From an uncultured Gammaproteobacteria bacterium (GTDB lineage Bacteria > Pseudomonadota > Gammaproteobacteria > JAADHQ01), in NCBI GenBank assembly GCA_963807455.1, contig CAWECS010000016.1:146682-210681 (forward strand): DNA of 64,000 nucleotides. The letters run 5' to 3'. Positions 9,710 to 53,433 of this stretch are shown one piece after another. Every line of letters begins with the position of its first letter. Positions within the stretch are counted from its first letter, which is position 1. Made by a program: the position numbers and the translations under genes. The notes under the pieces are model-generated. The model was not told the DNA's origin and did no database searches. It saw only the letters and a program-made list of their open reading frames with translations.

Positions 9710-10986
9710 GCGCAAATCCACAATCAGGTTTTCAAATACAATCCTATATGCAGACGCTAGGCAAACAGGCCCGGGCCGCAGCGCGCTTGATGGCTTCTGC
9801 GGATTCTGCCACCAAGAATGCGGCCTTGATAGTGATCGCAGACAAACTGGAGTCTTCCTGCGCGCAACTACAAACAGAAAATCGTAAGGATCTTGAAGCT
9901 GGTCGACTCAATGGACTCAGTGATGCCATGTTGGATCGTCTGGAACTAACGGCTGATCGCATCAAGTCGATGGCCGAGGGATTACGACAAGTGGCAACAC
10001 TGGCTGATCCCGTGGGCGAAATGACGGACATGCAATATCGTCCCAGCGGTATCCAGGTTGGAAAAATGCGCGTGCCATTAGGGGTGATCGGTATTATTTA
10101 TGAATCACGACCCAATGTGACGGCTGACGCAGCCGCGCTTTGCCTGAAATCCGGGAATGCCGCGATTTTGCGTGGTGGCTCCGAGGCTATTCATTCCAAC
10201 CAGGCCATTGCTGCTTGCATACATCATGGATTGCAGCAGGCAGGCTTGCCTGGGCATGCAGTACAAGTCATCGAAACGATTGATCGCGAAGCGGTGGGCG
10301 AATTGATTCGTATGGAAAAATATGTAGATGTTATCGTCCCGCGCGGTGGCAAAGGCTTGATTGAGCGCATTAGTCGTGAGGCCAAAGTGCCAGTGATAAA
10401 ACACCTTGATGGCATTTGTCACGTTTATATCGATGATGATGCTGATCTCGACAAGGCTATTCAGGTATCTTTCAATGCCAAGACTCAGCGTTATGGTACT
10501 TGTAATACCATGGAGACATTACTGATTGCCGAATCCATAGCGCAACAGGTGTTGCCGGAACTGGCAGCCATGTTCCAGGAAAAAGGCGTCGAGCTCAGGG
10601 GTTGTGAAACGACTTGCAATATTGTTGCTGGTACTACCCCGGCAAGCATGGAAGATTGGGACACAGAATATCTGGCGCCGATATTATCGATTCGTGTTGT
10701 TAAAGGACTGGATGAGGCTATTGATCATATAGAGACCCATAGCTCCCGGCATACTGATGCGATTATCACCGAAAATTATACCAGTGCCAGACGCTTTTTG
10801 CGTGAGGTTGATTCCAGCTCGGTCATGGTCAATGCATCGACGCGTTTTGCAGATGGTTTCGAATATGGACTCGGCGCTGAAATCGGCATTAGCACAGATA
10901 AGCTGCATGCACGTGGGCCGGTAGGTCTTGAGGGGCTAACGACACTCAAGTTTATAGTCCTGGGCGATGGGCATGTCAGGACATAG
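9706..10986 (+). CDS. proA: Gamma-glutamyl phosphate reductase
   Basis: 426 aa aldehyde-dehydrogenase-family protein with ProA hallmarks (IYESRPNVT, catalytic Cys region [14 protein letters not shown]). The start overlaps the holA stop. The proA-nadD-rsfS-rlmH order matches Pseudomonas-type synteny. Confidence 0.9.
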
Positions 10987-13427: not shown

Positions 13428-14904
13428 ATGAGTGAAGAAATACTGATTAATGTGACCCCGAGAGAGACGCGTGTAGCGTTGGTAGAGAATGGTGTGTTAC
13501 AGGAGGTTTATATTGAACGGGAACGTAAACGCGGCATCGTCGGAAATATATATAAAGGCAAGGTTAGTCGAGTATTACCAGGGATGCAGGCCGCCTTTAT
13601 TGACATCGGTCTGGAACGTGCTGCCTTTTTACATGCCTCAGATATCAGCAGTGCAGTACTGATTGAAGCTGAAGAGTTGAATGCTGAAAAGCGTCAGAAT
13701 GAAATCGCAGACCTGGTCAGTGAAGGTCAGGATATACTGGTCCAGGTTATCAAGGATCCACTCGGTAGCAAGGGAGCCAGGCTCACCACACATATCACTG
13801 TGCCATCACGTTACCTGGTGCTATTACCCGGGGAAAATAATATTGGTATTTCCACTAAAATTGAAGACGAAGAAGAACGTAATCGCCTCAAAGATATCGT
13901 CACCTCCAAGAGTGAAAATCGAGAAGGCCATGGTTTTATAATCAGAACTGTTGCTGAAGGAATTGATGAGCAGGCGTTAATATCGGATCAAGAATTTTTA
14001 TCTAAACTATGGATCTCGATTAAGGAACAGATTGAAGTTGGCACAACCAGGATCCGTTGTCTATCAGGATTTGTCGCTGGCTATACGTACATTGCGTGAT
14101 CTTGTCGATGATCAAATAGAGAAAATCAGAGTTGATTCACGTGAAAGCTTTAACAAGCTGCAAGAATTCAGCCAACAGTTTGTTCCCCATATGACAGGGT
14201 GTCTGGAATATTATCCTGGTGAGCGACCCATTTTTGATTTGTATAATGTTGACGACGAATTGCAAAAGGCGCTAGACAGGAAAGTGCAACTTAAATCGGG
14301 AGGTTATCTGATTATTGATCAGACCGAGGCGATGACAACTATCGATGTCAACACCGGTGCCTATGTAGGTCATCGAAATCTGGAAGAAACTATATTTAAA
14401 ACCAACCTGGAAGCGGCGCAGGCTATCACTCGCCAGTTGAGATTACGTAATCTGGGTGGGATTATCATTATCGATTTTATTGATATGTCACTGGATGATC
14501 ACAAACGCCAGGTATTACGAGCATTAGAGAAAACTCTGGTTAAAGACCATGCCAAAAGTAATATTACCGAGGTTTCCAGTCTTGGGCTGGTAGAGATGAC
14601 GCGTAAAAGAACGCGCGAGAGTCTGGAGCATGTTTTGTGTGATGTATGTCCTACCTGCGATGGCAGGGGCTCGATAAAATCAGCAGAAACTGTTTGTTAT
14701 GAGGTTTTCAGGGAGATTATCCGTGAAGTAAGGCAATATGATGCCAAAAAGTTATTGGTACTGGCTTCGCAGGAGGTAGTCGACCTGTTACTGGATGAGG
14801 AAAGTGCAAGTCTCGCTGAGTTGGAGGCTTTTATTGAAGTTCCGATTAAATTTCAGGTGGAAGCCTTGTTTACACCTGAGCAATATGATGTTGTGTTAAT
14901 GTAG
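13428..14904 (+). pseudogene. rng: Ribonuclease G (RNase E/G family), interrupted by an apparent +1 frameshift near 14,035-14,060
   Basis: Two overlapping ORFs in different frames (13428-14099 and 14032-14904) together span a ~490-aa RNase G. The first has the S1 domain, the second the catalytic and Zn-link region (CDVCPTCDGRG). The switch point lies between ...KEQIEVG and VVYQDLSLAIRTL. Confidence 0.75.
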
Positions 14905-38885: not shown

Positions 38886-39030
38886 TTATCATTATAGGTT
38901 ATATATGCTTATAATGATAAGATTATTTATCATTGTATTTGCAACAACACCTTTTATAGCCTATTATGTATATAAATATAATCATTATAGGTTAATAACC
39001 CTTATTAAGGTAATTATAATTATCATTATG
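38886..39030. promoter_or_regulatory. Array of TTATCATTAT-type operator-like repeats upstream of, and overlapping the start codon of, the hipB-like gene
   Basis: Two half-sites form an inverted repeat: TTATCATTAT (38886-38895) and ATAATGATAA (38911-38920), 15 bp apart. Further copies are at 38927-38934 (TTATCATT), 38980-38989 (AATCATTAT) and 39019-39029 (TTATCATTATG, overlapping the ATG). A 14-of-15 identical extended copy, ATCATTATAGGTTA, occurs twice. The surrounding spacer is highly AT-rich. Confidence 0.45.
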
Positions 39031-39378
39031 AAATTTGAAGCAATGACAAATGAATCGATTGCCGCAGAAATCGGTCAGCGAATCGAGCAAATGCGTTTGG
39101 AGCAGAATCTGACACAACAGCAACTGGCTGATGAGATTGGCCTGTCGCGTGTGAGTTATCGGAAACTGGTCGGTGGTGCGGGTAAATTTGAAAATATTAT
39201 TGCCGTACTGCGTGCTTTAGGTCGACTGGATTTAGTTGAGCAATTCGTACCCGAGACCGTATTCAGCCCGATGGAGCAATTAAAACTCAAGGGTAAACAA
39301 CGCCAGCGTGCAACAGGAGCGCATGCGCAAAAAGGGGGAAGTCATAGCCGTCAACAAAAACCTGGTCTGGACTGGTAA
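39028..39378 (+). CDS. hipB: HTH XRE-family transcriptional regulator, HipB-like antitoxin
   Basis: Helix-turn-helix LTQQQLADEIGLSRVSYRKL. The stop overlaps the hipA start (TAATG). The ORF-track start at 38905 adds a low-complexity 41-aa leader translated from AT-rich DNA that I consider spurious. An alternative start is ATG 39043. Confidence 0.7.
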   Translation: MKFEAMTNESIAAEIGQRIEQMRLEQNLTQQQLADEIGLSRVSYRKLVGGAGKFENIIAVLRALGRLDLVEQFVPETVFSPMEQLKLKGKQRQRATGAHAQKGGSHSRQQKPGLDW

Positions 39379-40688
39379 TGCAAAACCTGGCAGAAGTGCG
39401 ACTATGGGGTGAATTGCTGGGCGCCTTGCTGTATGACCCCGTCACAAAAATCAGCACCTTTGAATATGCGCCAGCCTGGGTGAACCAGGGCGTGGAAATT
39501 GCCCCTCTGTGGATGCCACTGTCGAGCAGAAAATATCAATTCCCCGGTTTAAATCCTGAGACTTATAAGGGTTTGCCAGCCGTGTTCTCGGATGTGTTGC
39601 CCGATGATTTCGGTAATGCGGTTATTAATGCATGGTTGGCCAGGCAGGGAAGAGATGCTGATTCATTTACTTCACTGGAGCGTTTACTTTATATCGGCAA
39701 CCGTGGCATGGGCGCGATTGAGTTTGAACCGGCCATTTCGAATAATATCGCAAGTAGTGAAAAAATTGAGCTGGCCTCATTAGTTGAAATGGCACAGAGG
39801 ATTTTAGACCAGCGCGCCAATCTATCCAAAAAACTATTACCGGAAAAATCCAATAACGATGCGATGTCAGGATTATTCCAGGTCGGGACCTCAGCCGGAG
39901 GAGCACGTGCCAAAGCACTGGTCGCGGTGAACGCGGACAGAACTCAATTACGATCAGGTCAAGTAGATGCGCCAACAGGTTTTGAGCATTACTTGCTGAA
40001 ATTTGACGGTGTAGAAGAGCATAAAGTAAATAGCGAAGTTTTTGGCGACCCCAAGGGCTTTGGACGCATGGAATATGCTTATTATCTGATGGCGGTGGAT
40101 GCAGGGATTAACATGCCACCATCAGAGTTGTTAATAGAAGGTGAGAGAGCCCATTTTATGACAAAACGCTTTGATCGTGATGGCAATAATAAAATCCAAT
40201 ACGTGTCTTTATGCGCCATGGATCATGCTGATTACAAAAAACCAGGTGCTTATAGTTATGAGCAATTATTATCTGTGGCAAGACAATTAAGGCTGCCGAG
40301 GAATGATGCAATAGAGATTTATCGCCGTATGGTTTTTAACGTCGTCGCTAGAAATCATGACGATCATTCCAAGAATATCGGTTTCTTGTTGCCTGCTATG
40401 CAAAGCCAGTGGCGCTTATCTCCGGCGTTTGATCTGGCCTATAGTTATAAAAAAGGTTCCCCCTGGGTCAATTCACATCAAATGAGTTTGAATGGCAAAC
40501 GCGATGACTTTGTTCGTGATGATTTATTAGCCGTTGGTGCGCTCATTGGTAATTTCAGCAAAAAGTCCAGAGAAATTATTGATGAAGTCATCGCGGTAGT
40601 AGATAACTGGAATGGCTATGCGCAACAAGCTGGAGTGTTTGAGAGTCTTGCAGAAGTCATCAGGAAAAATCACAGACGATTGCTTTAA
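39378..40688 (+). CDS. hipA: HipA-family serine/threonine kinase toxin (type II TA)
   Basis: 436 aa. HipA_N coupling domain and a C-terminal kinase core with the catalytic-loop motif VARNHDDHSKNIGFLL (the HipA NxDDHxKN pattern). Translationally coupled to hipB. Confidence 0.85.
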   Translation: MQNLAEVRLWGELLGALLYDPVTKISTFEYAPAWVNQGVEIAPLWMPLSSRKYQFPGLNPETYKGLPAVFSDVLPDDFGNAVINAWLARQGRDADSFTSLERLLYIGNRGMGAIEFEPAISNNIASSEKIELASLVEMAQRILDQRANLSKKLLPEKSNNDAMSGLFQVGTSAGGARAKALVAVNADRTQLRSGQVDAPTGFEHYLLKFDGVEEHKVNSEVFGDPKGFGRMEYAYYLMAVDAGINMPPSELLIEGERAHFMTKRFDRDGNNKIQYVSLCAMDHADYKKPGAYSYEQLLSVARQLRLPRNDAIEIYRRMVFNVVARNHDDHSKNIGFLLPAMQSQWRLSPAFDLAYSYKKGSPWVNSHQMSLNGKRDDFVRDDLLAVGALIGNFSKKSREIIDEVIAVVDNWNGYAQQAGVFESLAEVIRKNHRRLL

Positions 40689-41005
40689 GTGCAATTAATA
40701 ATGATCCTCTAGCGTCAATTTTCTCTGATTAAATTACGTTACGATATATCTAACACTTCATCATCAATAATAAAAAATATTACTATCACACTAATAAAGC
40801 ATACTGGCTGGCAAATCTTTGCTCGTCGATGCTTGGGTTTGTTTTGTTTAAAATAACAAATGATATTTAAACATAAATTATAATTATTATAGTCGATGTC
40901 ATCATAGATAAATTGCGTATTATATTTTATAAAGTGTGAACTAAAGCTTTCCTTTAATTTATTTTTTTTGCTAGACTCTGCGTTGAAATTTATAAAGGAC
41001 TATAT

Positions 41006-42700
41006 ATGAAACTTATTAATAACACTTCATTATTTGCATGGAAGCTAAAACCAGTTTTCCTCGCAATGAGCATCGCCCTGACGGGTTGTTACGAAACAAC
41101 CGAAAAAACAACTTACCTTGATCAAGGTTGGGATGATCAAAATCAGTACAGGGAAATTTCATATAACCTGTCGCAAGGATCCAATTTGATACCTTACGAT
41201 TGGTACCTGGCACTGGAAATACCTTATTTAGCAATACCACTTAACTCAAAAGAAGTGGCAGAAACCCTGCGTTATCTGTCGACCGACATCGCCACAGAGC
41301 GAAACCCTGACAAACTGCCTGTTGGTTTTGTGAAAAATATTGACGCAGATAACAAAGCATGGATCGGCCTCACCTGTGCTGCATGCCATACGAGTCAGAT
41401 CAACTATAAAGGAACAGGTGTCCGTATTGATGGTGGCCCGGCCATGGGGGATTTTATTACCCTGTTGAAGCTGGTGAAGAAAAGTATTGCAGATACTTTG
41501 GATAACGAAAACAAGTTTGAACGTTTCGCATCCAAACTCTATGGCCAGGATTGGTCAGCGCAAACGGAAACACTCAAGCTTGAAATGGAAACCATGAAGC
41601 AAAAGGTGTCGGGTATTATTGAGCGCAATGACAGCATAGTTGAGTCGGGCTATGGCCGCGTGGATGCATTTGGCTCCATTGGCAATGAAATTTTTGTCGA
41701 TGATCTTGGTATACCCAGTAACTTCAGTCAGGCTAATGCGCCCGCTGATTATCCTTTTCTTTGGGATACTCCGAACCTTGAACGGGTGCAATGGGCAGGT
41801 AATGTCGAAAATCCCTTTGGTCGTAATATTGGTGAAGTATATGGAGTCTTTGGTGAGGTTAACCTGACTGACCCCGCGCATCTTTTTACCAGTTCGGTCA
41901 AGTACAGGAATATCTTTCAACTGGAAGAAATGTTGCGTGTACTTAAATCGCCAAAATGGCCTGAATCTATTCTTAAAAAAATTAACAACAAAAAAGCCGG
42001 TCGTGGTGAAGTCATTTATAACACTGCGGATGCCTATGGTTACACCTGTGTCAGCTGCCACACTCTGCCCGATAGCAATGGTCAGTATCCATTGACCCCG
42101 GCCGAGGACAATCTGTTCAATAAACAATTTATTAAAACCTATAATATTCCGTTGGATGAGATTGGCACTGATCCCAATACCGCTGATGAGATATTTCAAT
42201 CACCATTAGTAGATGTTGGTCCAATACTGTCCAATATTTTTGGCCAGCAATTCTTGCCACGTACTTTTGCGCAAAGCGCCGTCGTAGGTCTTACGGTTAG
42301 AAAAGCATTTGAAGAAATACAGCCGCCACTGACTGACATTGAAAAGGCAGCCTATAGTGGATTTCGTATTTATGCGCCGGGCAAGGAACCTGAAGCTGAT
42401 TTTTCCGGTTATAAAGCGCGACCGTTAAATGGTATATGGGCGACTGCTCCTTACTTGCATAATGGTTCAGTAAGAACGCTCTCCATGTTGTTAACAGAAT
42501 CAGCTTTGCGAGAAAAGAGTTTCTGGAAAGGAACCCGCGAATTTGATCCAAAGAATGTTGGATTCAAATCAAAGAAGAGTGCGGCTGCACAATGGTTTGA
42601 TGCGACCCAGCCTGGTAATTTGAACAGTGGACATGACTACGGCACATCATTTAGCCAGCGTGAAAAATCAGACTTGATTGAGTTTCTGAAAACATTATAG
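41006..42700 (+). CDS. Di-heme c-type cytochrome lipoprotein (putative periplasmic peroxidase/oxidoreductase)
   Basis: 564 aa. Signal peptide with lipobox LTGC and two CxxCH heme-binding motifs (GLTCAACHTSQ, YTCVSCHTLPD) about 225 residues apart. This is larger than classical CCP/MauG. Family not assigned. Confidence 0.65.
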   Translation: MKLINNTSLFAWKLKPVFLAMSIALTGCYETTEKTTYLDQGWDDQNQYREISYNLSQGSNLIPYDWYLALEIPYLAIPLNSKEVAETLRYLSTDIATERNPDKLPVGFVKNIDADNKAWIGLTCAACHTSQINYKGTGVRIDGGPAMGDFITLLKLVKKSIADTLDNENKFERFASKLYGQDWSAQTETLKLEMETMKQKVSGIIERNDSIVESGYGRVDAFGSIGNEIFVDDLGIPSNFSQANAPADYPFLWDTPNLERVQWAGNVENPFGRNIGEVYGVFGEVNLTDPAHLFTSSVKYRNIFQLEEMLRVLKSPKWPESILKKINNKKAGRGEVIYNTADAYGYTCVSCHTLPDSNGQYPLTPAEDNLFNKQFIKTYNIPLDEIGTDPNTADEIFQSPLVDVGPILSNIFGQQFLPRTFAQSAVVGLTVRKAFEEIQPPLTDIEKAAYSGFRIYAPGKEPEADFSGYKARPLNGIWATAPYLHNGSVRTLSMLLTESALREKSFWKGTREFDPKNVGFKSKKSAAAQWFDATQPGNLNSGHDYGTSFSQREKSDLIEFLKTL

Positions 42701-42979
42701 TACCTGGAAGTTTGGGTCAGAACACGATTGCTTCTGTCATTAGAAGCAAAGAGTTCTGATCCAAATAGTACTAATAGTTGTTGTGACGGGATGTCAGGCA
42801 ATCATTGAAAGCAGCAGCACTGTAACCAAAGGTTATTCAGCCGTCGACTAGTTATATATTCAAGGACATAGCCTTTTGTCCATGTCGGAGACTATTTTTA
42901 TTTTTTCTATGTTAACTTAATACCATTCCATACTAATTTGATTATTTATAAACAGGTATGGATACAGTCAATAAAAGAA

Positions 42980-45044
42980 TCACATCTTCTTCGGTACAAA
43001 GAAAAATTCTCCTAGTCCGCCACCGTGTTTGACTGGAGCATATCGTGGAATTTGCTCAATATTATATTGGGCTGCAGTATTCTGTACATTGTCCGTGATT
43101 TGTTGATAGAGACGATAACCTTCGATGATTGACTGGTTTTTGTCGAGAGCGTCCAGAAAGGCACGTGCGAATACTGAATGATCTGCCGCCCCCAGCATCC
43201 AGAACAGGCTTGATACCACCGGATGTCATGACGATTCTGGCTCGAGTCTTGGACATGACCTTTATCCATCTGGCACGATGCTGAACATCATTCACACCGA
43301 GGCTCATACGGGTTTGTGCTGTACTGCTCATGGTGCCGGAGTAACAGGAATCAGCTATCACCAGGATATGCTTTGATTTAATGACATTGAGCATGTCAGT
43401 GATATCCAGATTAGATATCCAGTTTGCTGTATTTTCATTTTCAGCATCAACTGGCAACCAGTAACCACGCTGATTTTGTTGGTTGATTTCTCCATGTCCT
43501 GCATAGTAGATCAGTAAATTATCATTACTGGTTAGTTTGGAACTCAATTCATTTAACGCTGTTAATATACTATAGCGATCAGCATTCAGGATTAACTTGG
43601 TTTTGAAACCGTATTTATTACGGAGTATAGATTCAGTTTGTTTGGCATCATTGACGGCTGTTTTCAATGCAGGAAAATGTTGATAACGATTATTGCCAAT
43701 AATCAGTGCATGGTAATTACCAAAGGGTATTGATTGTATATCCTCATGCTCTGAAGGCGTTGACATGATTGTTTTTGTCGCTGGTGTTAGCGTATTAGTG
43801 GCAGCTTCGATGGCAAAGGCCAGACGAGCAACCCGTCCGCCTTTATCCACGGCAACCATCTTTACTTTGGTGGTCTGATTGCTTGCGTTCAGTGCGAGCT
43901 CAAATTTACCAGTGCTATTGATTTTGTGTTTTTGCCCATTGACGGTAAAACCGAGTATGCCGGCGGGCGCAGTGACGCGTCCAACAATATTATAGCGTTG
44001 TTGGTTGACCGGTAATTTGATTGTTGGCAGGCCTCGGGTCAGGATCAAAGGGTGCTGCAGAATGTTAATAGATGGGCCAGCCAGTTTCGTCAGATCATTG
44101 CTGACATTGGCGCTGGCTAAAAGTATTTTTTCGCTCAGTTGACTCTGGTTTTTGTTGAAATCATTTTGTAAGTCAGAAATAACATTTTGTTGTTGTGCAA
44201 TATTAGTCTTCAGATTCTGAATTTCGCGCTCATATGATAGAGTTTTTTCGTCAGTCGTGGTTTCAATAGCGAGGTATTGCTGGTTTTTTACCTGTAATTG
44301 CTTAAGCCGTTTAAGCGTTAAAGCCAATTGTTTTTTTCTATGTTGCAGCTGCCCATCAGTGCGAGAGAGTTTTTTGCGCAGGATATTAGTCTGTTGCTTG
44401 CTTGTCGCCACTTCACGCTGTAGTTTTTTCACTTCCTCCTGAGTAGAAGCGGCAATCGCGATATCGATGGATGATGCAAATTTTAGATCATTGTTGGTCA
44501 GTCCCGAGGCTTTGCGGTACCAGTTGATGGCTTTAACCAGATCTTTTTCTACGCCAAGTCCCTTTTCATAAAGGTAACCGAGATTGATTTCTGCTTTGTC
44601 ATTTCCAGACGCAGCAGCTTTTTCATACCAGAGGCGCGCCAGTTCATAATCGGGCGTAATACCCAGTCCTTTTTCATATATTTCACCGACATTAACCTGG
44701 GCATCGGCATTACCCTGTTTGGCCATTTCGAGCCAGACTTTCAAAGAGGTGCGGTAATCGGCGCGATTATAGGCAGTATATTCACCACCCCGAATCTCGC
44801 AATTGATAGCGCTGGTTCTGAGAGGGCGCCTGGCTGTCAGATAGCTTAACTGACCGCCCAGTTGGCGTACGACACCAGGTAGCAGACAATCGACAATAAA
44901 TAGTTTGTCGATATCTTTACGCGCCACCTGGGCGTGTTGCAAAGATTCATCCTGGATTTTTGGGCTGGTCGTGCCGATCGATTGGCAACCTGACAAAAGA
45001 GTCATCATCAGTGCAGCAAGAAAATACAAATTCCGTTTTATCAT
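42980..45044 (-). pseudogene. Sel1-repeat lipoprotein with coiled-coil region and C-terminal caspase (peptidase C14/CHAT-like) domain, with an apparent frameshift in a G5/C5 homopolymer near 43,189-43,193
   Basis: Lipobox LLSGC. Sel1 repeats (AQVNVGEIYEKGLGITPDY..., AEINLGYLYEKGLGVEKD...), a roughly 150-aa Q/K-rich coiled coil and a caspase His/Cys dyad (YYAGHG ... ADSCYSGT). The conserved HetF-type tail (...SGGIKPVLDAGG | HSVFARAFLDAL...) continues in the overlapping ORF 42980-43219 in another frame. Confidence 0.7.
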
Positions 45045-45271
45045 GTGTTAACCTTATTGAGTGCAAGCACACATCCCTGTTGGTTGTGCTCAACATTGTT
45101 CAGACTGGCCTACAGGATACTTAGTGATGCTGATGTAATCAATAGCACGCTTTATAGCTTGCCCGTGTGCCATGTTAATAGTCGAAATAAATCATTGTTT
45201 ATGAAAAACATTTTATTGTGTAGGAAAATGCTTACATAAAAATCAGCACAATAACAGTCTAGAATCGTTCC

Positions 45272-46090
45272 ATGAAGATGAAAAAAAATCTTTTATCCCA
45301 TTTATTATATTGCCTGCCAGTTTTTTTTCTGGTCGCTTGTTCGCATATTTCACCCGCGCATTACCACAGGGAAGTTGAACGTCAAGGTCTGGAACGGCAT
45401 ATCATCCAGACAGGTATTTTCCCGCTGGTCTATTACCGCAGGCCCAATGAGAAAATGAGTGATACATTGCACGTCTATATCGGTGGCGATGGAGTTCCCT
45501 GGCAAAGCCATATTTTTAAGTCTGAAGATCCCGGGCCCTATCATCCACTGGTCTTGCAACTGATGCAGCAAGATAAACAACCCAGTATTTATTTGGGTCG
45601 TCCCTGTTATCAAGGTTTGGCGAGAGTGCCTCCTTGTCAACCCGAACACTGGACTTCGGCCAGATTTTCCACAGAAGTGGTGAATAGTATGTCCACTGCA
45701 TTGAAGCAACTGCTGCAACAATATCAATATAAAAAACTGGCACTATTCGGTTACAGTGGCGGAGGTGCCCTGGCTGTACTACTGGCGCATGAATTACCTC
45801 AGACTCAGCTGGTGGTAACTATTGCCGGCAATCTGGACACTGACGCATGGACTTCCTATCATTATTATTCTGCAATGACGGCATCGATGAATCCCGCAAA
45901 GCAAGATGCATTGCCCGCCACGGTCAGACAAATTCATCTCCAGGGTGACCGGGATATGAATATTCCTCCACGATTGTCAGCCAATTATATAAAGAAACAG
46001 AATGACGTCACCGTGCTAAGTTTTGCCGACGCCGACCATACCTGTTGTTGGCATTTATATTGGTCTGAGTTGCTATCTGATCTTGAATAA
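45272..46090 (+). CDS. Alpha/beta-hydrolase-fold lipoprotein, hypothetical esterase/lipase
   Basis: 272 aa. Lipobox LVAC. Nucleophile elbow GYSGGG and a C-terminal Asp/His (ADADHTC) consistent with a Ser-Asp-His triad. Confidence 0.55.
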   Translation: MKMKKNLLSHLLYCLPVFFLVACSHISPAHYHREVERQGLERHIIQTGIFPLVYYRRPNEKMSDTLHVYIGGDGVPWQSHIFKSEDPGPYHPLVLQLMQQDKQPSIYLGRPCYQGLARVPPCQPEHWTSARFSTEVVNSMSTALKQLLQQYQYKKLALFGYSGGGALAVLLAHELPQTQLVVTIAGNLDTDAWTSYHYYSAMTASMNPAKQDALPATVRQIHLQGDRDMNIPPRLSANYIKKQNDVTVLSFADADHTCCWHLYWSELLSDLE

Positions 46091-46258
46091 GGCTTATATA
46101 ATGAAAGAATAATGAAACAGGGGTGGTAATTATGATCAAATATCGTTAGAATGTATTTACCACTGGCGCACTAGCCAGACTGCCAAGGAATCTGTGTTGT
46201 ACAGGTATTCGGCAGAGACAATATTAATATACTGACTCGATACATGGAGGTATTCGTT

Positions 46259-47747
46259 ATGAAAAAGCATTATCTTGTACGCTGTAATTTCCCTTTTATT
46301 CAAATCATCTCTTTATCCCGGGCATGTTTGCATGTCAGCCTGGCAAGCATTTTTGTGTTCAGCCTGAGTATGATGGCTTCCACTGCGAGCCACGCGCTAA
46401 CGCCAACACAGCAAGCCGTGATGAATTATTTCACTAATCCCAGTCTCTGTAGGCCAGTCACCCTGGAAGAAGATGCAGAAGAACCCATCGACGAGAAAAA
46501 GAAAGGTGAGTTATCCGGCTTTGGCACATCAAACAAGATATTTAGATCCGAATTTCCTGATCCACTCGCAGTGACTGATGGCGCTTATGAATGCAGTAAT
46601 CTTAGAACGGCTGATGGTGAAATTCATTTTCAGGCAGGCATCGAACGACTGCTGAATAGCCCCGAGTCTCTTAACCTTGAAGAAGTACTGCTAGGATTGG
46701 CATTTGAGGAAGTGATTACCATGGGCACCTTGAATGTGGAAATAAACGGTGCACATATGGCTAATTTGAATGCACATGTCGATGATCTGCATCAAGGTAG
46801 TATTGGTATGAGACATCCATCGGTATCTGCCAAAGATTTATCCCAGAGCAAACAGACCGGTGGTGGTGCATCTTCAAGTGGCAGCGATAACAACAAAATC
46901 GGTTTCTTTTTTAATACCAGGGTTGATACGGGTGATAAGGATGTCTCTCCACAAGAGACGGGTTTTGACTTCGATGCCTACGGCATTACTGGCGGCATGG
47001 ATGTGCGCGTGAATAATAATCTGGTGGTCGGTTTTGCAGCGGGGTATGGTAATACACAGGCCGATTACACTTCATCTATCGGTAGTATGGAAATGGATGG
47101 ATACAGTCTGTCAGCTTTTGGCACGCTCTACAAGAAAGACAAATATTTTCTTGATGCCATCGTTAACTATACACGAAATGAATTTGAATCCAGCAGAACT
47201 TTTGTGACACCTAATAATATAACGCAAACAGCACTGGGTGAAACTGACGGTGACACGTTGACCATCGGCCTGGGTATGGGTTATGAGGAACATATCAAAG
47301 ACGTAACGTTTGGCCCATTTATACGCTTGAATTATACCAAGGTCGATATAGATGCTTTTTCTGAAACAGGTGCGGGCCTTGTCAGTTTACAGATTGATGA
47401 ACAACAATTGAAATCTTTTGAAGGTGTCGTCGGCTTCCAGGCAAGCAAGATTATTAGTCGACCATGGGGTGTATTGATTCCTCAGTTCAGATTGGAGCTT
47501 GTACATGAATTTAAAAATGAAAGTCGCATAATCAATGCTCGTTTCCAGGGCGCTGTCAATAATGGCATCACTACCAATATGTTGATCCCTACGGATATGA
47601 CCTGACCTTAATTACTTCAATCTGGCGCTGGCAACATCAGCACAGTTTAGCCATGGCCGCACTGCCTTTGTTCAGTATACTGGATTGTTGGGCCAACAAG
47701 ATGTGAGTGAGCACGCAATAGAGCTAGGCGTACGCTGGAATTATTAA
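46259..47747 (+). pseudogene. Small autotransporter (short passenger plus beta-barrel translocator domain), with an apparent 1-nt frameshift near 47,600
   Basis: Signal peptide, a roughly 200-aa passenger and a typical autotransporter beta-domain (..YSLSAFGTLY.., ..TIGLGMGYEE..). The ORF stops at 47605, but the canonical C-terminus (...YTGLLGQQDVSEHAIELGVRWNY*) is encoded in the +1 frame from 47601 to 47747. Confidence 0.65.
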
Positions 47748-47752
47748 TCTAC

Positions 47753-49168
47753 CTATTTGAGGTGCTCCAGTAATTTCAGGAGTGCCTCATGTCTAGGGCT
47801 GATACTCAAACCTTCCTCTACCAGGTTCAAGGCAGTCTGGTTGTTACCATTATCGATATATCCATTTGCCAGGCGTACGTAGACATCTGCAATTCTACTC
47901 AGACCAGACAACGCTTGAGGATTAGCAGGGTGGATTTCCAGGATCTGTTGATAGGCAGACAATGCATTGCTACCAGCAGGTTCAGTGTAACGCTGCACCA
48001 TCATGTGCGCATCCGCAATTTCCAGCAACGAAATTATTTTTTCCTGATCTGACGGGCTAAGTGTTTCAAAAGGAGTGGCGACGACGATATCAATACTCTG
48101 TTTATTGACATTCTGCACTAAGTAAAAAGTAAGCATTCCCAGTATGATCAGGGTACTGAAAATAGGCAAGGCCCAAAAACGAAAAGCTTCACCGGTAGAT
48201 CCAGGAATGAAATCATTTATAAATGCCTGGACACTGTCCGGGCGTTCTTCGCGTTTTGTGGACAGGCTTTTCGACAGTATTTTCCATTGTTTTCGTTTCA
48301 GTCCATCAATAGGCGTAGGCTGAATTCCCTGTTCGCTCGCCTGTGTGCAGGTCTTTCTATTAAATGGATGCTTACCCGTTAATAGTTCATAAGCTATGAT
48401 GGCGAGCGCGAAGACATCATCACGCGGTTCAGGTATTTCACCTTCCAGCATCTCACAACTGGCGTAACCAGGTGTTACTGCTCGCCGGGTGCCCTTGTTA
48501 AGAGACTCATGTACTTCGTGCATTTCATTCACCAGAAAAGCCCTGGCGATGCCGAAATCCAATACCTTGACTATGTTCTCATTGGTAATGAAAATATTGG
48601 CCGGTTTTAAGTCGCAATGGATGATATTCTTGCTGTGTGCGTAGATCAGTGCTTTGCCAACACTTTTAATGATGCTAAATGCTTCATTTCGCGGCATGAC
48701 AACGAGCTGGTCCTTCTTATAAATCTTATCGGATAACGCCTGACCCTTGAGATATTCCATGGTCATCATGAAAATATCACCGTCACGATCAAAGTCATGT
48801 ACGTTGACAATGTTTGGGTGGGAAAGCATCTGCGTTTTGCGTGTTTCCCGTTGCAGGTTAATAAAGTCTTTTTTAGGCGTTTTGCTGCCAGGTTTTAGCA
48901 GCTTGATAGCGACATAGGGGTCGGTATCCATGGCCTCAATCTTTCTCAGATCACGTGCCTTATAGACCACGCCCATGCCACCTTTAGCAATGATGGCATC
49001 GAGAATAAAACGGTCTTTCAGGGTCTTTTGTATAGGACGAGCTGAAGCGGGAGAGGACTTGGATGAAGCAGAAGCGTTGGAAGACGTTTGCCGGCGATGA
49101 TCATCTTTATCTTCAAGTAGATGAGTGACATCGTTGGATGCATCGTTTTTGTTATCCCCTGTTGACAT
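47753..49168 (-). CDS. Hanks-type serine/threonine protein kinase with one TM helix and a C-terminal TPR-like extracytoplasmic domain
   Basis: 471 aa. Kinase subdomains I (GKGGMGVVYKARD), VIb (HCDLKPANI) and VII (DFGIA). A hydrophobic segment (ALPIFSTLIILGMLTFYLV) is followed by a helical repeat tail. Convergent with the autotransporter, with 5 bp between the stops. Confidence 0.85.
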   Translation of the reverse strand: MSTGDNKNDASNDVTHLLEDKDDHRRQTSSNASASSKSSPASARPIQKTLKDRFILDAIIAKGGMGVVYKARDLRKIEAMDTDPYVAIKLLKPGSKTPKKDFINLQRETRKTQMLSHPNIVNVHDFDRDGDIFMMTMEYLKGQALSDKIYKKDQLVVMPRNEAFSIIKSVGKALIYAHSKNIIHCDLKPANIFITNENIVKVLDFGIARAFLVNEMHEVHESLNKGTRRAVTPGYASCEMLEGEIPEPRDDVFALAIIAYELLTGKHPFNRKTCTQASEQGIQPTPIDGLKRKQWKILSKSLSTKREERPDSVQAFINDFIPGSTGEAFRFWALPIFSTLIILGMLTFYLVQNVNKQSIDIVVATPFETLSPSDQEKIISLLEIADAHMMVQRYTEPAGSNALSAYQQILEIHPANPQALSGLSRIADVYVRLANGYIDNGNNQTALNLVEEGLSISPRHEALLKLLEHLK

Positions 49169-49434
49169 TGAGCACCTTACTGCTAATTATTTTTTGCGTG
49201 CATATCATTACCTATCGGCTGTGGCTAGTCTAGCAGAACCCGGGTATCTAGTGCTAATGACAGGCAGTCTGTTATCTGCGCTAGCGTACTCATTATTTTT
49301 ATTAGTTCTTTTTGCGTGCAGACATATAAGTTGTTGAAAAATGAATTAATTATAAAAAAGACAGGTACTTAATGGTGTAACTATGCTGAGATGTTATACA
49401 GACCTATGCGTCAAATGTTTTCTGATGCTGCATA

Positions 49435-50139
49435 TTAAATTCTACCGTGTAAATATGCTTGTCTGCGTGTTGGGCTGAATTTTTCGATTGCGTATCTCAA
49501 CATGGTTCTCGGCATTTGTTTGTAATACAGTCTTAAAAAGTATTCTTCAATATCATTATCGCGATTGCCGATTTCCCTGAGCATCCAGCCAGCCGCTTTA
49601 TGGATCAGGTCTTCCTGATCATTTAGTAATAATTTGGATAGTTTCATCGCATCGGTGTACTGCTCATTTTTTATAAAATAAAAGCAGGACATAATAGCAA
49701 TGCGGCGATCCCATAATCGATTTGATTGAACAAGTTCATATAAAATCGTGCGCTCCTTGTCGAATAAATAAGCGCCAATGATATTCGGCGCCGAGCTATC
49801 AACAAGATCCCAGTTGTTTATATATTGGGTATGTTTTAAATAAAGATTAAAGATCTTCTCCTGTTTTTTATTGTCAGCGTTTTTGAATTGCTGTACTAAT
49901 AATAGTAAAGCAAATAATCTGATTTCATGATATTCAGATTTGAGCAGTGTCTTTACTTTTGTCAAAGAAGTATCCTGGTATAAGCCGACTGTTTTTCTTA
50001 ACACTGGAACTCGAATGCCAAGAAACTTGTCGCCGTATCCATATTCCCCTTCGCCTGTTTTAAAAAAGCGTTGAGAATGTGCGGCGACTTTTTTATTTGC
50101 CAACTTAAGTAAATATTTATTGATATCCATTTGGGCCAT
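49435..50139 (-). CDS. DNA alkylation repair protein (AlkD/AlkC-like HEAT-repeat glycosylase family)
   Basis: 234 aa all-helical protein. Length and the motifs (..WDLVDSSAPNIIG.., ..WDRRIAI..) match the DNA_alkylation (PF08713) family. Confidence 0.75.
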   Translation of the reverse strand: MAQMDINKYLLKLANKKVAAHSQRFFKTGEGEYGYGDKFLGIRVPVLRKTVGLYQDTSLTKVKTLLKSEYHEIRLFALLLLVQQFKNADNKKQEKIFNLYLKHTQYINNWDLVDSSAPNIIGAYLFDKERTILYELVQSNRLWDRRIAIMSCFYFIKNEQYTDAMKLSKLLLNDQEDLIHKAAGWMLREIGNRDNDIEEYFLRLYYKQMPRTMLRYAIEKFSPTRRQAYLHGRI

Positions 50140-51071: not shown

Positions 51072-51563
51072 TTATTTTTTCTCGTGTTTATGTTCTGGAT
51101 AGTAAGGCGACAAAGATTCAATGCTTGCTTTTAGCGTATTCGCAAATTTTCCATCAGCATTTTGTTTAGCCTTCATCGCTGCAACAATGACTGCATGGTG
51201 ATTTTTCAAACGATCCGCATAATCTTTTTGACTTGGTTTGACTCGCTGTGTCAGAAAATAGTCACTAATTGTCGATATGATCTTCTGCGCATGATTTTCT
51301 TTATTCATTACCCAGCGAACTAATTGGTTTTGTGATTGAGCATCGGACTTGCCTGATAATTCTGCAATCAATTTAGTTGACTTTATAACGGTATCAGCAT
51401 CTTCAAGCATTTGTTGAACACGTGCATGGTCATCATAAATGCCGCAGGGAATCTGGCAATGAGCATGCGCTGTTTGCAGTAACAGTAAATTAGATCCAAC
51501 TATAGTTAAACTTATTATCCACAATATTTCTTTCAGTTTTTTCATGACTATCTCCTTCGCCAT
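51072..51563 (-). CDS. sodN: Nickel-containing superoxide dismutase precursor with Sec-type signal peptide
   Basis: 163 aa. A cleavable signal peptide ends ...LQTAHA, immediately followed by the Ni-hook HCQIPCGIYDD (consensus HCDLPCGVYDP). The rest is a roughly 115-aa four-helix bundle typical of NiSOD. Confidence 0.8.
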   Translation of the reverse strand: MAKEIVMKKLKEILWIISLTIVGSNLLLLQTAHAHCQIPCGIYDDHARVQQMLEDADTVIKSTKLIAELSGKSDAQSQNQLVRWVMNKENHAQKIISTISDYFLTQRVKPSQKDYADRLKNHHAVIVAAMKAKQNADGKFANTLKASIESLSPYYPEHKHEKK

Positions 51564-51879
51564 TTTATTTAATATTAACTAGCATCCTGTAATAGATTTG
51601 AATCATAGTACTAAACTAGACAAAATAATAACAAAATTAGCTGTTTAAATGGATAATTATTATTTAATTGAGGCGCTAAAATAAAGCGTATCCTATGGTT
51701 TTATCTAATGGATTATTAGTATAGGTTAATGATGTTAATATAATTTAAACATTGAAATATAAATATCTATAGGCAAATATATTTATTTCATTTTATTGTA
51801 TAAATATACAGTCTTCACTCTCATCGCGCTGTTAATGTTTATCAATAGCTTGTTTAGGTCCTGTTATTTGAGTGTCAAT

Positions 51880-52398
51880 CTATTCCGCTCCAAACTCAAT
51901 AGCTTCGCGTACCGCCTCGATGCCTGCCAAGGCACAAGCATGATCAATATCACCAGGTATTTTTTCACGTGGTGCGCCTGAGACCCCCACTGCACCATAC
52001 ATATAGCCACCCAGTTTAACCGGTACACCACCGCCCACCAGTGATAACTTCGGCGTGCCTTTCAGAAAAGCTAATCGTTGAGTCAAGTCAATAGTCGCAC
52101 CTTGAAAAGTGGCAGCTGTATAGGCCTTGTATTTGGCTATCGTAATCGTATGTGCGCCGGCCAGTGGGTCCCGTGCAAAGGCCTGTAAATTACCATAACG
52201 ATCAACAACGGCGACGGATATCTGGTAGCCTTTTTTCTTGCAGGCGAGCTCCGTTGCTGATGCTATTTTTATCGCAATAGCTGCTGTTAAAAAACGCGCA
52301 CTGACAAACGGAGCTACTTCATCTTTAGCCGAGACTGGCTGCAGGCTACTGACAGAATATAATAATACGCCTAGGGTGGTCGTCAAAGTATTGCGCAT
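51880..52398 (-). CDS. GlcG/HbpS-like (DUF336) heme-binding/degrading family protein, secreted
   Basis: 172 aa with signal peptide and the DUF336 glycine-rich signature (LVGGGVPVKLGGYMYGAVGVSGAP). Confidence 0.7.
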   Translation of the reverse strand: MRNTLTTTLGVLLYSVSSLQPVSAKDEVAPFVSARFLTAAIAIKIASATELACKKKGYQISVAVVDRYGNLQAFARDPLAGAHTITIAKYKAYTAATFQGATIDLTQRLAFLKGTPKLSLVGGGVPVKLGGYMYGAVGVSGAPREKIPGDIDHACALAGIEAVREAIEFGAE

Positions 52399-52818
52399 TT
52401 TTCCTCCACTTAATATAGTTTGAAATTATATAGTAATGTCCAGCTCTGTTAGCTTACTCTTTCATCTGTTACAACTCATATATTATTAACAATAATAATG
52501 AGGCATATCTTATAGAAAAACCTATAATTCAGGTCAAGATAAAAATACTTTCTAATATTATATATAACTCAGTATAGGTTGTAGCAACTTTTTGTTACCT
52601 GGCACATCGCAGAAGTGGTTTATGAAAATAGTGTGCTGCGAAAGTGAAATTAATTAAAGATTGGCAGTTATGAGCAATGCATGCATTTTACCGATGAAAT
52701 CTTTAATATTGTATTAAAGCACCACTGGGTAAGACAGACACGAGCCCTCGTTAGTACGGGCTATGCACTATATTGATTAAACGGCTCGAAACAAAAAACT
52801 GACTTGAATAAAACAAGG

Positions 52819-53433
52819 CTAAATAAATAAGCTCACATCAGCTCCTTGAGCTTTGGTTAAGTAGGTAGCCGCACCCGCCCAATCTGAAATACCCTCCATA
52901 AAATCCTCTTTTTCCCAGCCAAATACGTCTACAGTCATTTGACAAGCAATCATCTCAACACCTGATTCGACACAGGATTCTCGTAAGTCATGAATGCTAG
53001 CCACACCCTTTTGCTTAAGTGTTTGTTTCATAAGCCCGGTGGCAAGCTTCTCGAAACCTGGTATTCCAGCCATGACCAGATTGGGCATATTCCATTCAAT
53101 TCCTCTAAACCAGTGGGGTCCAAATGGCATTTTCATCGGCATGGCCGGATTACCCAGCGCACTGATATCTGGATTGATTTCTTTCTTTAGTAACGTTAAT
53201 CCATAGAAGGTAAAAAATAGCGATACATCCCAATCCAATGCGGCTGCCGTAGATGAAATAATAAATGTTGGATAGGCCCAGTCTAGTGTCCCTTTGGAGA
53301 CTAATATGGATAATTTTGGCTTTTTATTAGCTTGATATTCAGCCATTTTTTTGGCGAATTGTTCATCAAACCATTCTTCTAGCGTAGTACCCTGTGCTAG
53401 AGAAGATTTTGCACTATCTAGATCGATTGCCAT
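52819..53433 (-). CDS. DsrE/DsrF-like (peroxiredoxin-like COG2210) family protein, hypothetical
   Basis: 204 aa. Rossmann-like DsrE fold suggested by KLSILVSKGTLDW and a conserved Cys (MIACQMT). Assignment is tentative. Confidence 0.45.
   Translation of the reverse strand: MAIDLDSAKSSLAQGTTLEEWFDEQFAKKMAEYQANKKPKLSILVSKGTLDWAYPTFIISSTAAALDWDVSLFFTFYGLTLLKKEINPDISALGNPAMPMKMPFGPHWFRGIEWNMPNLVMAGIPGFEKLATGLMKQTLKQKGVASIHDLRESCVESGVEMIACQMTVDVFGWEKEDFMEGISDWAGAATYLTKAQGADVSLFI

Follow-up and report, generated by a model that had tools for sequence, protein, structure and literature searches.

In Pseudomonas aeruginosa, the outer-membrane lipoprotein TagQ, the periplasmic TagR and TagST together activate the kinase PpkA, which phosphorylates Fha1 and so leads to assembly of a type VI secretion system (T6SS), and in Serratia RtkS replaces TagQRST upstream of PpkA; a 2026 review describes such upstream T6SS sensors as interchangeable between lineages, lineage-specific and mostly uncharacterised (PMC13584744). 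Another route across the envelope is the ExoR-ExoS/ChvG-ChvI system, in which a periplasmic Sel1 protein controls an inner-membrane sensor kinase via binding and proteolysis (PMC4550343). The joining of Sel1 repeats to a Peptidase_C14 domain was catalogued in 2012, Sel1 being present in 6% of bacterial metacaspases (Asplund-Samuelsson et al., PMC3501461). Here we analysed a stretch of 64,000 nucleotides (referred to as the window) from an uncultured Gammaproteobacteria bacterium of the GTDB lineage JAADHQ01 (assembly GCA_963807455.1, contig CAWECS010000016.1, positions 146,682 to 210,681 of the forward strand), in which a Sel1-caspase lipoprotein, an alpha/beta-hydrolase lipoprotein, a small type Va autotransporter and a bitopic Hanks-type Ser/Thr kinase are encoded side by side. 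Comparison with related genomes indicates that these four genes almost certainly constitute a conserved functional module, which in about one third of the loci lies close to T6SS genes.

Adjacency was followed across genomes with the caspase as query, after correction of its reading frame (see below). This yielded 2528 homologous proteins at E<=1e-10, and 80 further loci came from scanning a single genome of each GTDB species with the caspase alignment; partners were detected by tblastn of the five proteins of the window neighbourhood (the four above and a neighbouring cytochrome) against all loci. Of 82 non-redundant loci from other organisms, 54 have the kinase within 6 kb of the caspase, 48 have the hydrolase and 46 the autotransporter within this distance. 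Where 6 kb or more of sequence was available on each side (n=46), all 46 loci contained at least one of the three partners, 36 contained at least two and 13 contained all three. Unsupervised clustering of all neighbouring open reading frames (ORFs) ranked the kinase, hydrolase and autotransporter families first (57, 50 and 49 loci, respectively), the next family reaching 18 loci. Bit scores of the autotransporter covaried with those of the caspase (rho 0.63, p=1e-6), as did those of the kinase (rho 0.48, p=2e-4).

The relatives with 77%- and 66%-identical caspases carry the block KIN> AT< HYD< CASP> (kinase, autotransporter, hydrolase and caspase genes, with orientation) within entirely different flanks. 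At least 12 distinct gene orders or orientations occur among the loci, again with unrelated flanks, including KIN> HYD< CASP> AT> in a Thiodiazotropha chromosome and in a JGI metagenome contig. A search anchored on the hydrolase (a family of 2437 proteins) revealed CASP< AT> HYD> in two loci, and one AT> HYD> pair without a caspase. The lineages concerned are gamma-, beta-, alpha- and delta-proteobacteria and Rokubacteria/Methylomirabilia, with a few loci each in records labelled Nitrospinota, Spirochaetales or Thermodesulfobacteriota, and carriers available in culture include strains of Methylomonas, Methylotuvimicrobium, Marinobacter, Hahella, Arenimonas and Desulfopila. Because it is conserved across lineages, the clustering of the four genes is, by sequence comparison, above chance, which does not hold for the cytochrome.

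The initial annotation had treated the cytochrome and these four genes as a single signalling or programmed-response unit, and had proposed co-occurrence in related genomes as its measure; by that measure the cytochrome therefore drops out and the four-gene unit is supported. It is true that all five products are predicted to be targeted to the envelope and that their genes are tightly spaced in the window. However, in none of 86 related loci did tblastn place a cytochrome homologue closer than 10 kb to the caspase, and in the closest relatives (those with 77%- and 66%-identical caspases) other genes occupy the caspase-distal side, namely a PAS histidine kinase or a KdtA-type glycosyltransferase. 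The cytochrome moreover belongs to a curated family of its own, scoring 505.6 bits against a cut-off of 150 for the di-heme cytochrome c peroxidase family NF040606, with CXXCH motifs at residues 124 (CAACH) and 348 (CVSCH); it also has a RoxA-like match. A five-gene unit thus seems barely credible. On this comparative evidence the cytochrome is an unrelated chance neighbour outside the conserved module, and it is not to be grouped with the four genes in annotation.

The composition of the module varies between lineages. The loci of Ketobacter and other Pseudomonadales (L009, L024, L028, L035, L039, L041, L043, L047 and L050-L052) have no autotransporter, and a proline-rich single-transmembrane protein (F6) is encoded between their caspase and kinase genes. 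F6 was considered as a split-off periplasmic tail of the kinase, an idea that was dropped when BLASTP gave no significant similarity. These loci also share a 154-residue protein (F9), DUF6279, DUF2489, and TagF beside the hydrolase.

After the module genes themselves, the commonest neighbour families by Pfam were TagF, TssJ, the T6SS Fha protein, TssL, TssK and TssA, to which we add a family of 1181-residue proteins that we take, by size and position, to be TssM. In 29 of 87 loci, at least one of these genes is found no further than 10 kb from the caspase, in lineages unrelated to one another (Methylococcales, Ketobacter/Pseudomonadales, Oleiphilus, Sedimenticola, Arenimonas and Dongiaceae), and in about ten relatives the T6SS Fha protein (FHA plus PF20232) directly adjoins the caspase. 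Methylomonas subterranea has the order AT< KIN< tssJ> HYD> CASP> fha> tssK> tssL> tssM>, where tssJ and the hydrolase gene share a 4-nt overlap and the genes for the kinase and autotransporter lie upstream in divergent orientation; in Oleiphilus it is tssA< CASP> KIN> fha> tssJ> tssK> tssL> tssM>. The Thiodiazotropha locus (L090) has genes for DUF2169 and PAAR proteins, which are associated with T6SS effectors, at a distance of 7-10 kb. The likeness suggested for this neighbourhood, to modules that filamentous sulfur bacteria and cyanobacteria use for programmed responses, found no supporting evidence; type VI secretion is the context that recurs.

The presence of the hydrolase and caspase genes inside a tssJ-fha-tssK-tssL-tssM operon in Methylomonas, and the prediction that both products are periplasmic catalytic lipoproteins, might also indicate an accessory of the T6SS membrane complex, in which a periplasmic protease and hydrolase clear or remodel the envelope for TssJLM insertion in the manner of TagX or MltE. 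We regard this as quite unlikely, as the constant partner of the caspase is a signalling kinase rather than a T6SS structural gene, the module stands alone in most loci, including that of the window, and neither enzyme resembles a known peptidoglycan hydrolase.

In the window itself, the locus is laid out as follows (coordinates in the window, strand, and basis of the assignment):

41006-42700, plus strand: di-heme cytochrome c peroxidase-family lipoprotein (ORF call, Pfam, NCBIfam)
43062-45044, minus strand: Sel1-caspase lipoprotein ORF as deposited (ORF call)
43185-45044, minus strand: 5′ part of the Sel1-caspase gene, in frame from the ATG (ORF, Pfam, alignment, AlphaFold)
42980-43183, minus strand: 3′ part of the Sel1-caspase gene in another frame, ..DHSVFARAFLDAL..GEFFFVPKKM* (three-frame translation, DNA alignment)
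45045-45271, no strand: divergent intergenic region that separates the caspase gene from the hydrolase gene, 227 bp (ORF coordinates)
45272-46090, plus strand: alpha/beta-hydrolase lipoprotein (Pfam, invariant triad, AlphaFold 2 (AF2) model)
46244-47605, plus strand: small type Va autotransporter ORF as deposited (ORF call)
46244-47599, plus strand: 5′ part of the autotransporter gene, encoding the signal peptide, a passenger of ~90-160 residues and most of the beta-barrel (PF03797, TIGR01414)
47601-47747, plus strand: 3′ part of the autotransporter gene in another frame, PDLNYFNLALA..GVRWNY*, encoding the last barrel strands and the C-terminal aromatic residue (translation, alignment)
47753-49168, minus strand: bitopic Hanks-type Ser/Thr kinase (Pfam, NCBIfam, family alignment)

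All five envelope-targeted ORFs reported by the initial annotation are present with the domains described (Pfam, NCBIfam), and so are the three lipoboxes (LTGC with Cys28 in the cytochrome, LSGC with Cys20 in the caspase and LVAC with Cys23 in the hydrolase). The spacers of 280, 227 and 5 bp that it gave hold for the frame-corrected genes only and not for the ORFs as deposited: the corrected caspase stop (42980-42982) lies ~279 bp from that of the cytochrome, 227 bp separate the start of the caspase gene from that of the hydrolase gene, and the corrected autotransporter stop (47745-47747) is 5 bp from that of the kinase. The caspase and hydrolase genes presumably share a promoter region in between. 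This region (45045-45271) is ~80% identical to positions 9775-10000 of the related locus L001, which suggests a conserved regulatory sequence because the encoded proteins share no more than 62-77% identity. Scanning 40600-49500 for promoters and terminators returned as many hits as in shuffled controls, Rfam gave no match at the locus, and a repeat search yielded short chance matches only, with no insertion sequence or cassette boundaries.

Upstream, the cytochrome gene is directly preceded by a hipB-like helix-turn-helix gene and by hipA, a toxin gene with HipA_C and Couple_hipA domains (38905-40688, plus strand); given the odd hydrophobic extension at its N-terminus, the hipB-like ORF probably has its real start further downstream. 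Beyond the kinase, 51072-53433 (minus strand) encodes a nickel superoxide dismutase with the motif HCxxPCGxY, a haem-binding protein resembling HbpS and a member of the DsrE family, which hints at a sulfur-oxidising or marine gammaproteobacterial host.

The split genes in this list stem from one-base insertions, which the initial annotation had read through. The deposited caspase ORF ends in nonsense (..GGGRSFSIRTCLSG..), and the canonical C-terminus (DHSVFARAFLDAL..GEFFFVPKKM*) is found in another frame, as ORF 42980-43219. DNA alignment with the intact genes of the related loci L001, L004 and L007 revealed one extra base at ~43184, which interrupts the frame through the C-terminal (p10-like) part and costs ~66 conserved C-terminal residues (intact relatives measure 681-690 residues). 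In the same type of alignment with three intact relatives, the autotransporter gene has one extra base at ~47600, so that no single frame encodes a complete barrel ending in an aromatic residue and the last 48 barrel residues (..GVRWNY) are lost. A 660-residue entry in the public protein collection (P0001) is exactly the truncated caspase product, and the frameshift is therefore present in the deposited assembly. Programmed frameshifting was ruled out, since the insertions are absent from the three relatives and have no slippery or homopolymer context.

A third frameshift splits the RNase G gene (rng) into 13428-14099 and 14032-14904 (plus strand), the two halves carrying positions 1-78 and 81-270 of the RNase_E_G profile. 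Two of the three frameshifts in the 64 kb thus fall inside the 5.9-kb module, for which the probability by chance is ~0.03. Together with the truncation of two genes that are intact in three relatives, and with the truncated caspase encoded by the public assembly, this might indicate that the module of this particular genome is a non-functional remnant with two pseudogenes, a reading we place only slightly short of an even balance. On the other hand, neither the caspase nor the autotransporter gene shows further stops or decay elsewhere, the kinase and hydrolase genes are intact, and indel errors in the assembly are a live alternative because the housekeeping gene rng is frameshifted too. The copy in the window is either decaying or hit by assembly errors.

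The caspase protein combines Sel1 repeats with a Peptidase_C14 domain (PF00656, E=5e-20), of which His517 and Cys567 are invariant in 29 sequences, and the lipobox Cys20 is invariant in the family. Its AlphaFold model comprises Sel1 helices (residues 97-180), two long helices (202-310), a beta-sandwich that is an Ig-like (immunoglobulin-like) domain (325-414) and a caspase fold (443-671), for which Foldseek returned MALT1, GSU0716, metacaspase 4 and caspase-6. The most conserved part of the protein is an N-terminal motif of ~60 residues, DCLLPGxVRxLG..CEIRGGEY..DRADYRT, at about residues 47-104 (44733-44906, minus strand), with a mean column identity of 76% and 70-85% identity between distant lineages; it recurs in all 90 caspase-bearing loci. 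This motif was found in 882 representative protein clusters (50% identity), always at the N-terminus; all 48 motif-bearing proteins sampled contain Sel1 repeats, and the caspase was the sole catalytic domain detected in them. Profile searches gave no relative in the PDB and none in Pfam, and the AlphaFold model assigns the motif a pLDDT (confidence score) below 50. We infer that it is a binding element. The architecture is that of the bacterial metacaspases or orthocaspases with Sel1 surveyed in 2012, and the His-Cys dyad is conserved here, but that survey includes neither the N-terminal motif, nor the lipoprotein nature, nor a linkage to the kinase, hydrolase, autotransporter or T6SS (PMC3501461).

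When plasmids were searched with the caspase by tblastn, the only matches were partial and to the caspase domain, in Azospirillum. On the Azospirillum megaplasmids (H1-H4, e.g. NC_013858.1, 586192-587031), the caspase domain lies inside genes annotated as 'filamentous hemagglutinin N-terminal domain-containing protein', suggesting export by two-partner (type Vb) secretion and thereby a second link between caspases and type V secretion.

The hydrolase has weak, generic alpha/beta-hydrolase matches in Pfam and belongs to no specific curated family. Its GxSxG elbow reads GYSGG, and the triad Ser162/Asp228/His256, the pair Cys112/Cys122 and the lipobox Cys23 are all invariant. For its AF2 model (pLDDT 91.9), Foldseek returned generic lid-less esterases only. 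The autotransporter has a hydrophobic N-terminus and a beta-domain matching PF03797 (E=4.7e-52) and TIGR01414; its barrel is conserved and its passenger variable, being short in the clade of the window and elsewhere built from long arrays of Ig-like repeats. The Thiodiazotropha locus (L090; chromosome OY734020.1, 7571-23093) reads KIN> HYD< CASP> AT> AT>, with a caspase of 1030 residues and ASH/HYDIN-type Ig repeats in the passengers of both autotransporters.

Such variable passengers, some with the long Ig-like arrays typical of surface proteins, could also mean that the module serves the maturation of an adhesin-like surface protein, the caspase and esterase processing, modifying or releasing the passenger while the kinase only regulates its expression or reports on it and no dedicated role in type VI secretion exists. 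This would agree with the frequent direct adjacency of autotransporter and hydrolase genes (3-40 bp), with the caspase domains in type Vb-secreted proteins of Azospirillum, and with the majority of loci that are without a nearby T6SS gene. One further locus (L089, 8729-15337) presents an autotransporter-hydrolase pair followed by a large, 1492-residue Peptidase_S8 protein in the position of the caspase, which is missing there. This protease was examined as a swapped-in effector sharing the N-terminal motif; the motif is absent, however, and the gene may be a coincidental neighbour. Surface-protein maturation moreover leaves the repeated tssJ-fha embedding and the TagF adjacency unexplained, and many loci (Ketobacter-type, Oleiphilus) keep the caspase and kinase without any autotransporter. 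We therefore consider it unlikely.

The kinase, already recognised by the initial annotation as a transmembrane protein with a TPR tail, consists of a cytoplasmic kinase domain (residues 57-311), a single transmembrane segment (328-354) and a periplasmic TPR-like tail (355-471) that is conserved within the family. Its best PDB match is PknB (1.6e-30). In the family alignment, K89, H184-C-D186, N191 and DFG204-206 are conserved throughout (52 of 52 members), HCD replacing HRD in the window kinase; since 33 of the 52 have S, C or F just before the catalytic Asp, most kinases of the family are non-RD.

These features led us to propose that the module acts as a trans-envelope sensor-transducer, and as a T6SS sensor where it is linked to T6SS genes, because it shares the logic of the PpkA pathway and, in one third of the loci, also its genomic position. 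By this analogy, to which we give about even weight, the autotransporter would display a variable domain at the cell surface, and the two catalytic lipoproteins would sit at the outer membrane and act in the periplasm, their sorting being predicted from the lack of Asp at position +2 (E. coli sorting rule). The Sel1 repeats and N-terminal motif might draw in a partner or substrate for the caspase domain, and the resulting proteolytic or esterolytic event could be read by the periplasmic tail of the kinase, which would then phosphorylate cytoplasmic targets. In T6SS-linked loci, the kinase may take the role of PpkA/TagE towards Fha, phosphorylating it, and the lipoproteins and autotransporter may replace TagQRST or RtkS as the upstream sensor. 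The module of the window stands alone.

Several points weigh against this sensor-transducer proposal. Two of the four module genes are frameshifted in the window, so this copy may do nothing. With all three partners in only 13 of the 46 well-flanked loci the module is loose, and the score of the hydrolase does not covary significantly with that of the caspase (rho 0.23, p=0.10). About two thirds of the loci have no T6SS gene in the fetched flanks. As for the window, Pfam found no T6SS gene in the 35 of its 62 ORFs of at least 120 residues that were scanned, among which an Fha1/TagH-type FHA substrate gene was absent as well; tblastn with five T6SS families over 33000-55000 retrieved none, and the closest relatives (L001-L008) have no T6SS gene within 10 kb, so that a T6SS output is unsupported for this clade. 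A PP2C phosphatase (PppA/TagG) did not appear among ten neighbour ORFs scanned at the T6SS-linked loci L045, L009, L012 and L063, a search that was not exhaustive. Finally, the outer-membrane location is predicted from the E. coli +2 rule only, and we infer the direction of signalling as well as the substrates of both the protease and the hydrolase. What the comparisons do establish is that the four families are conserved, co-localised and catalytically competent, and that about one third of the loci are embedded in or adjoin T6SS clusters.

A more far-reaching version of the sensor-transducer proposal, possible but doubtful, is that the periplasmic caspase, esterase lipoprotein and autotransporter form an unrecognised danger- or contact-sensing cascade that activates a mostly non-RD Hanks kinase, triggering the T6SS in many Proteobacteria and some other bacteria and other responses where the module stands alone. 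If true, caspase-based danger signalling would have a counterpart in the bacterial envelope.

Since caspase-like proteases and Ser/Thr kinases are both known from defence systems, the same pair of proteins might in turn be read as an anti-phage or abortive infection (programmed death) system in which the kinase would be the sensor and the caspase the executioner. The kinase domain indeed matches the PD-T4-6 and Mad6 models and the caspase matches a PADLOC caspase model, but these are matches to generic domains, with no model for the hydrolase, autotransporter or cytochrome, and no specific system component in PADLOC-DB was matched by any of the five proteins. At one locus (L087, 1-17496), CASP< AT> HYD> is flanked by several TIR_2 genes, a Trypsin_2 plus TPR-S gene and an endonuclease gene, a neighbourhood that looks like a conflict system, unlike most other loci, where the flanks are mostly housekeeping or T6SS genes rather than defence islands. 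The export of the caspase and hydrolase lipoproteins would furthermore place them away from phage DNA and cytoplasmic targets. We regard a defence role as very unlikely.

No account of the module, of the caspase lipoprotein family, of its N-terminal motif or of its gene linkage was found in the literature on caspase homologues and the T6SS, for which journal coverage was incomplete; the initial annotation had called the unit uncharacterised. Caspases, Sel1 and autotransporters go unmentioned in the 2026 review on accessory factors of the T6SS (PMC13584744). As the cues for T6SS firing outside Pseudomonas and Serratia are largely unknown, the module offers a concrete candidate sensor, and it gives a first plausible cellular context to a large family of caspase homologues that bacteria export and that was catalogued in 2012. 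In the annotation of this assembly, frameshift flags should be set on two genes.

Compared with known systems, the module bears partial likenesses to several. NlpI-Prc of E. coli and LbcA-CtpA of P. aeruginosa each physically couple an outer-membrane helical-repeat lipoprotein to a periplasmic protease for regulated proteolysis. The module shares with them a helical-repeat (TPR/Sel1-type) lipoprotein and a protease, but here repeats and protease are fused in one polypeptide and the protease is a C14 Cys protease instead of an S41 Ser protease. The ExoR-ChvG-ChvI pathway of Agrobacterium also switches on the T6SS; ExoR, however, has neither a protease domain nor a lipid anchor, and its partner is a histidine kinase and not a Hanks kinase. 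In RcsF-OMP-IgaA, an outer-membrane lipoprotein and an outer-membrane beta-barrel signal across the periplasm to an inner-membrane protein, a trans-envelope likeness that is one of analogy, as its components are not related to those of the module, it involves no phosphorelay and the lipoproteins of the module are enzymes.

The nearest counterparts are the TagQRST-PpkA(TagE)-Fha1-PppA pathway of the P. aeruginosa H1-T6SS and the RtkS-PpkA pathway. PpkA carries a vWA domain, whereas the tail of the module kinase is TPR-like and most kinases of its family (33 of 52) are non-RD. The module has no homologues of TagQ, TagR, TagS, TagT or RtkS and instead brings a caspase, an esterase-like lipoprotein and an autotransporter; the ten neighbour ORFs scanned included no PP2C. 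For the stand-alone copy in the window, membership in the PpkA pathway is unsupported because no T6SS, Fha or PppA gene is nearby. What the module and these pathways have in common is a Hanks kinase of the inner membrane that has a periplasmic domain and is encoded in T6SS clusters near an FHA protein and TagF, for which an outer-membrane lipoprotein and periplasmic partners act upstream, as we propose for the module, and it is this genomic position of the PpkA pathway that the module occupies in 29 of the 87 loci.

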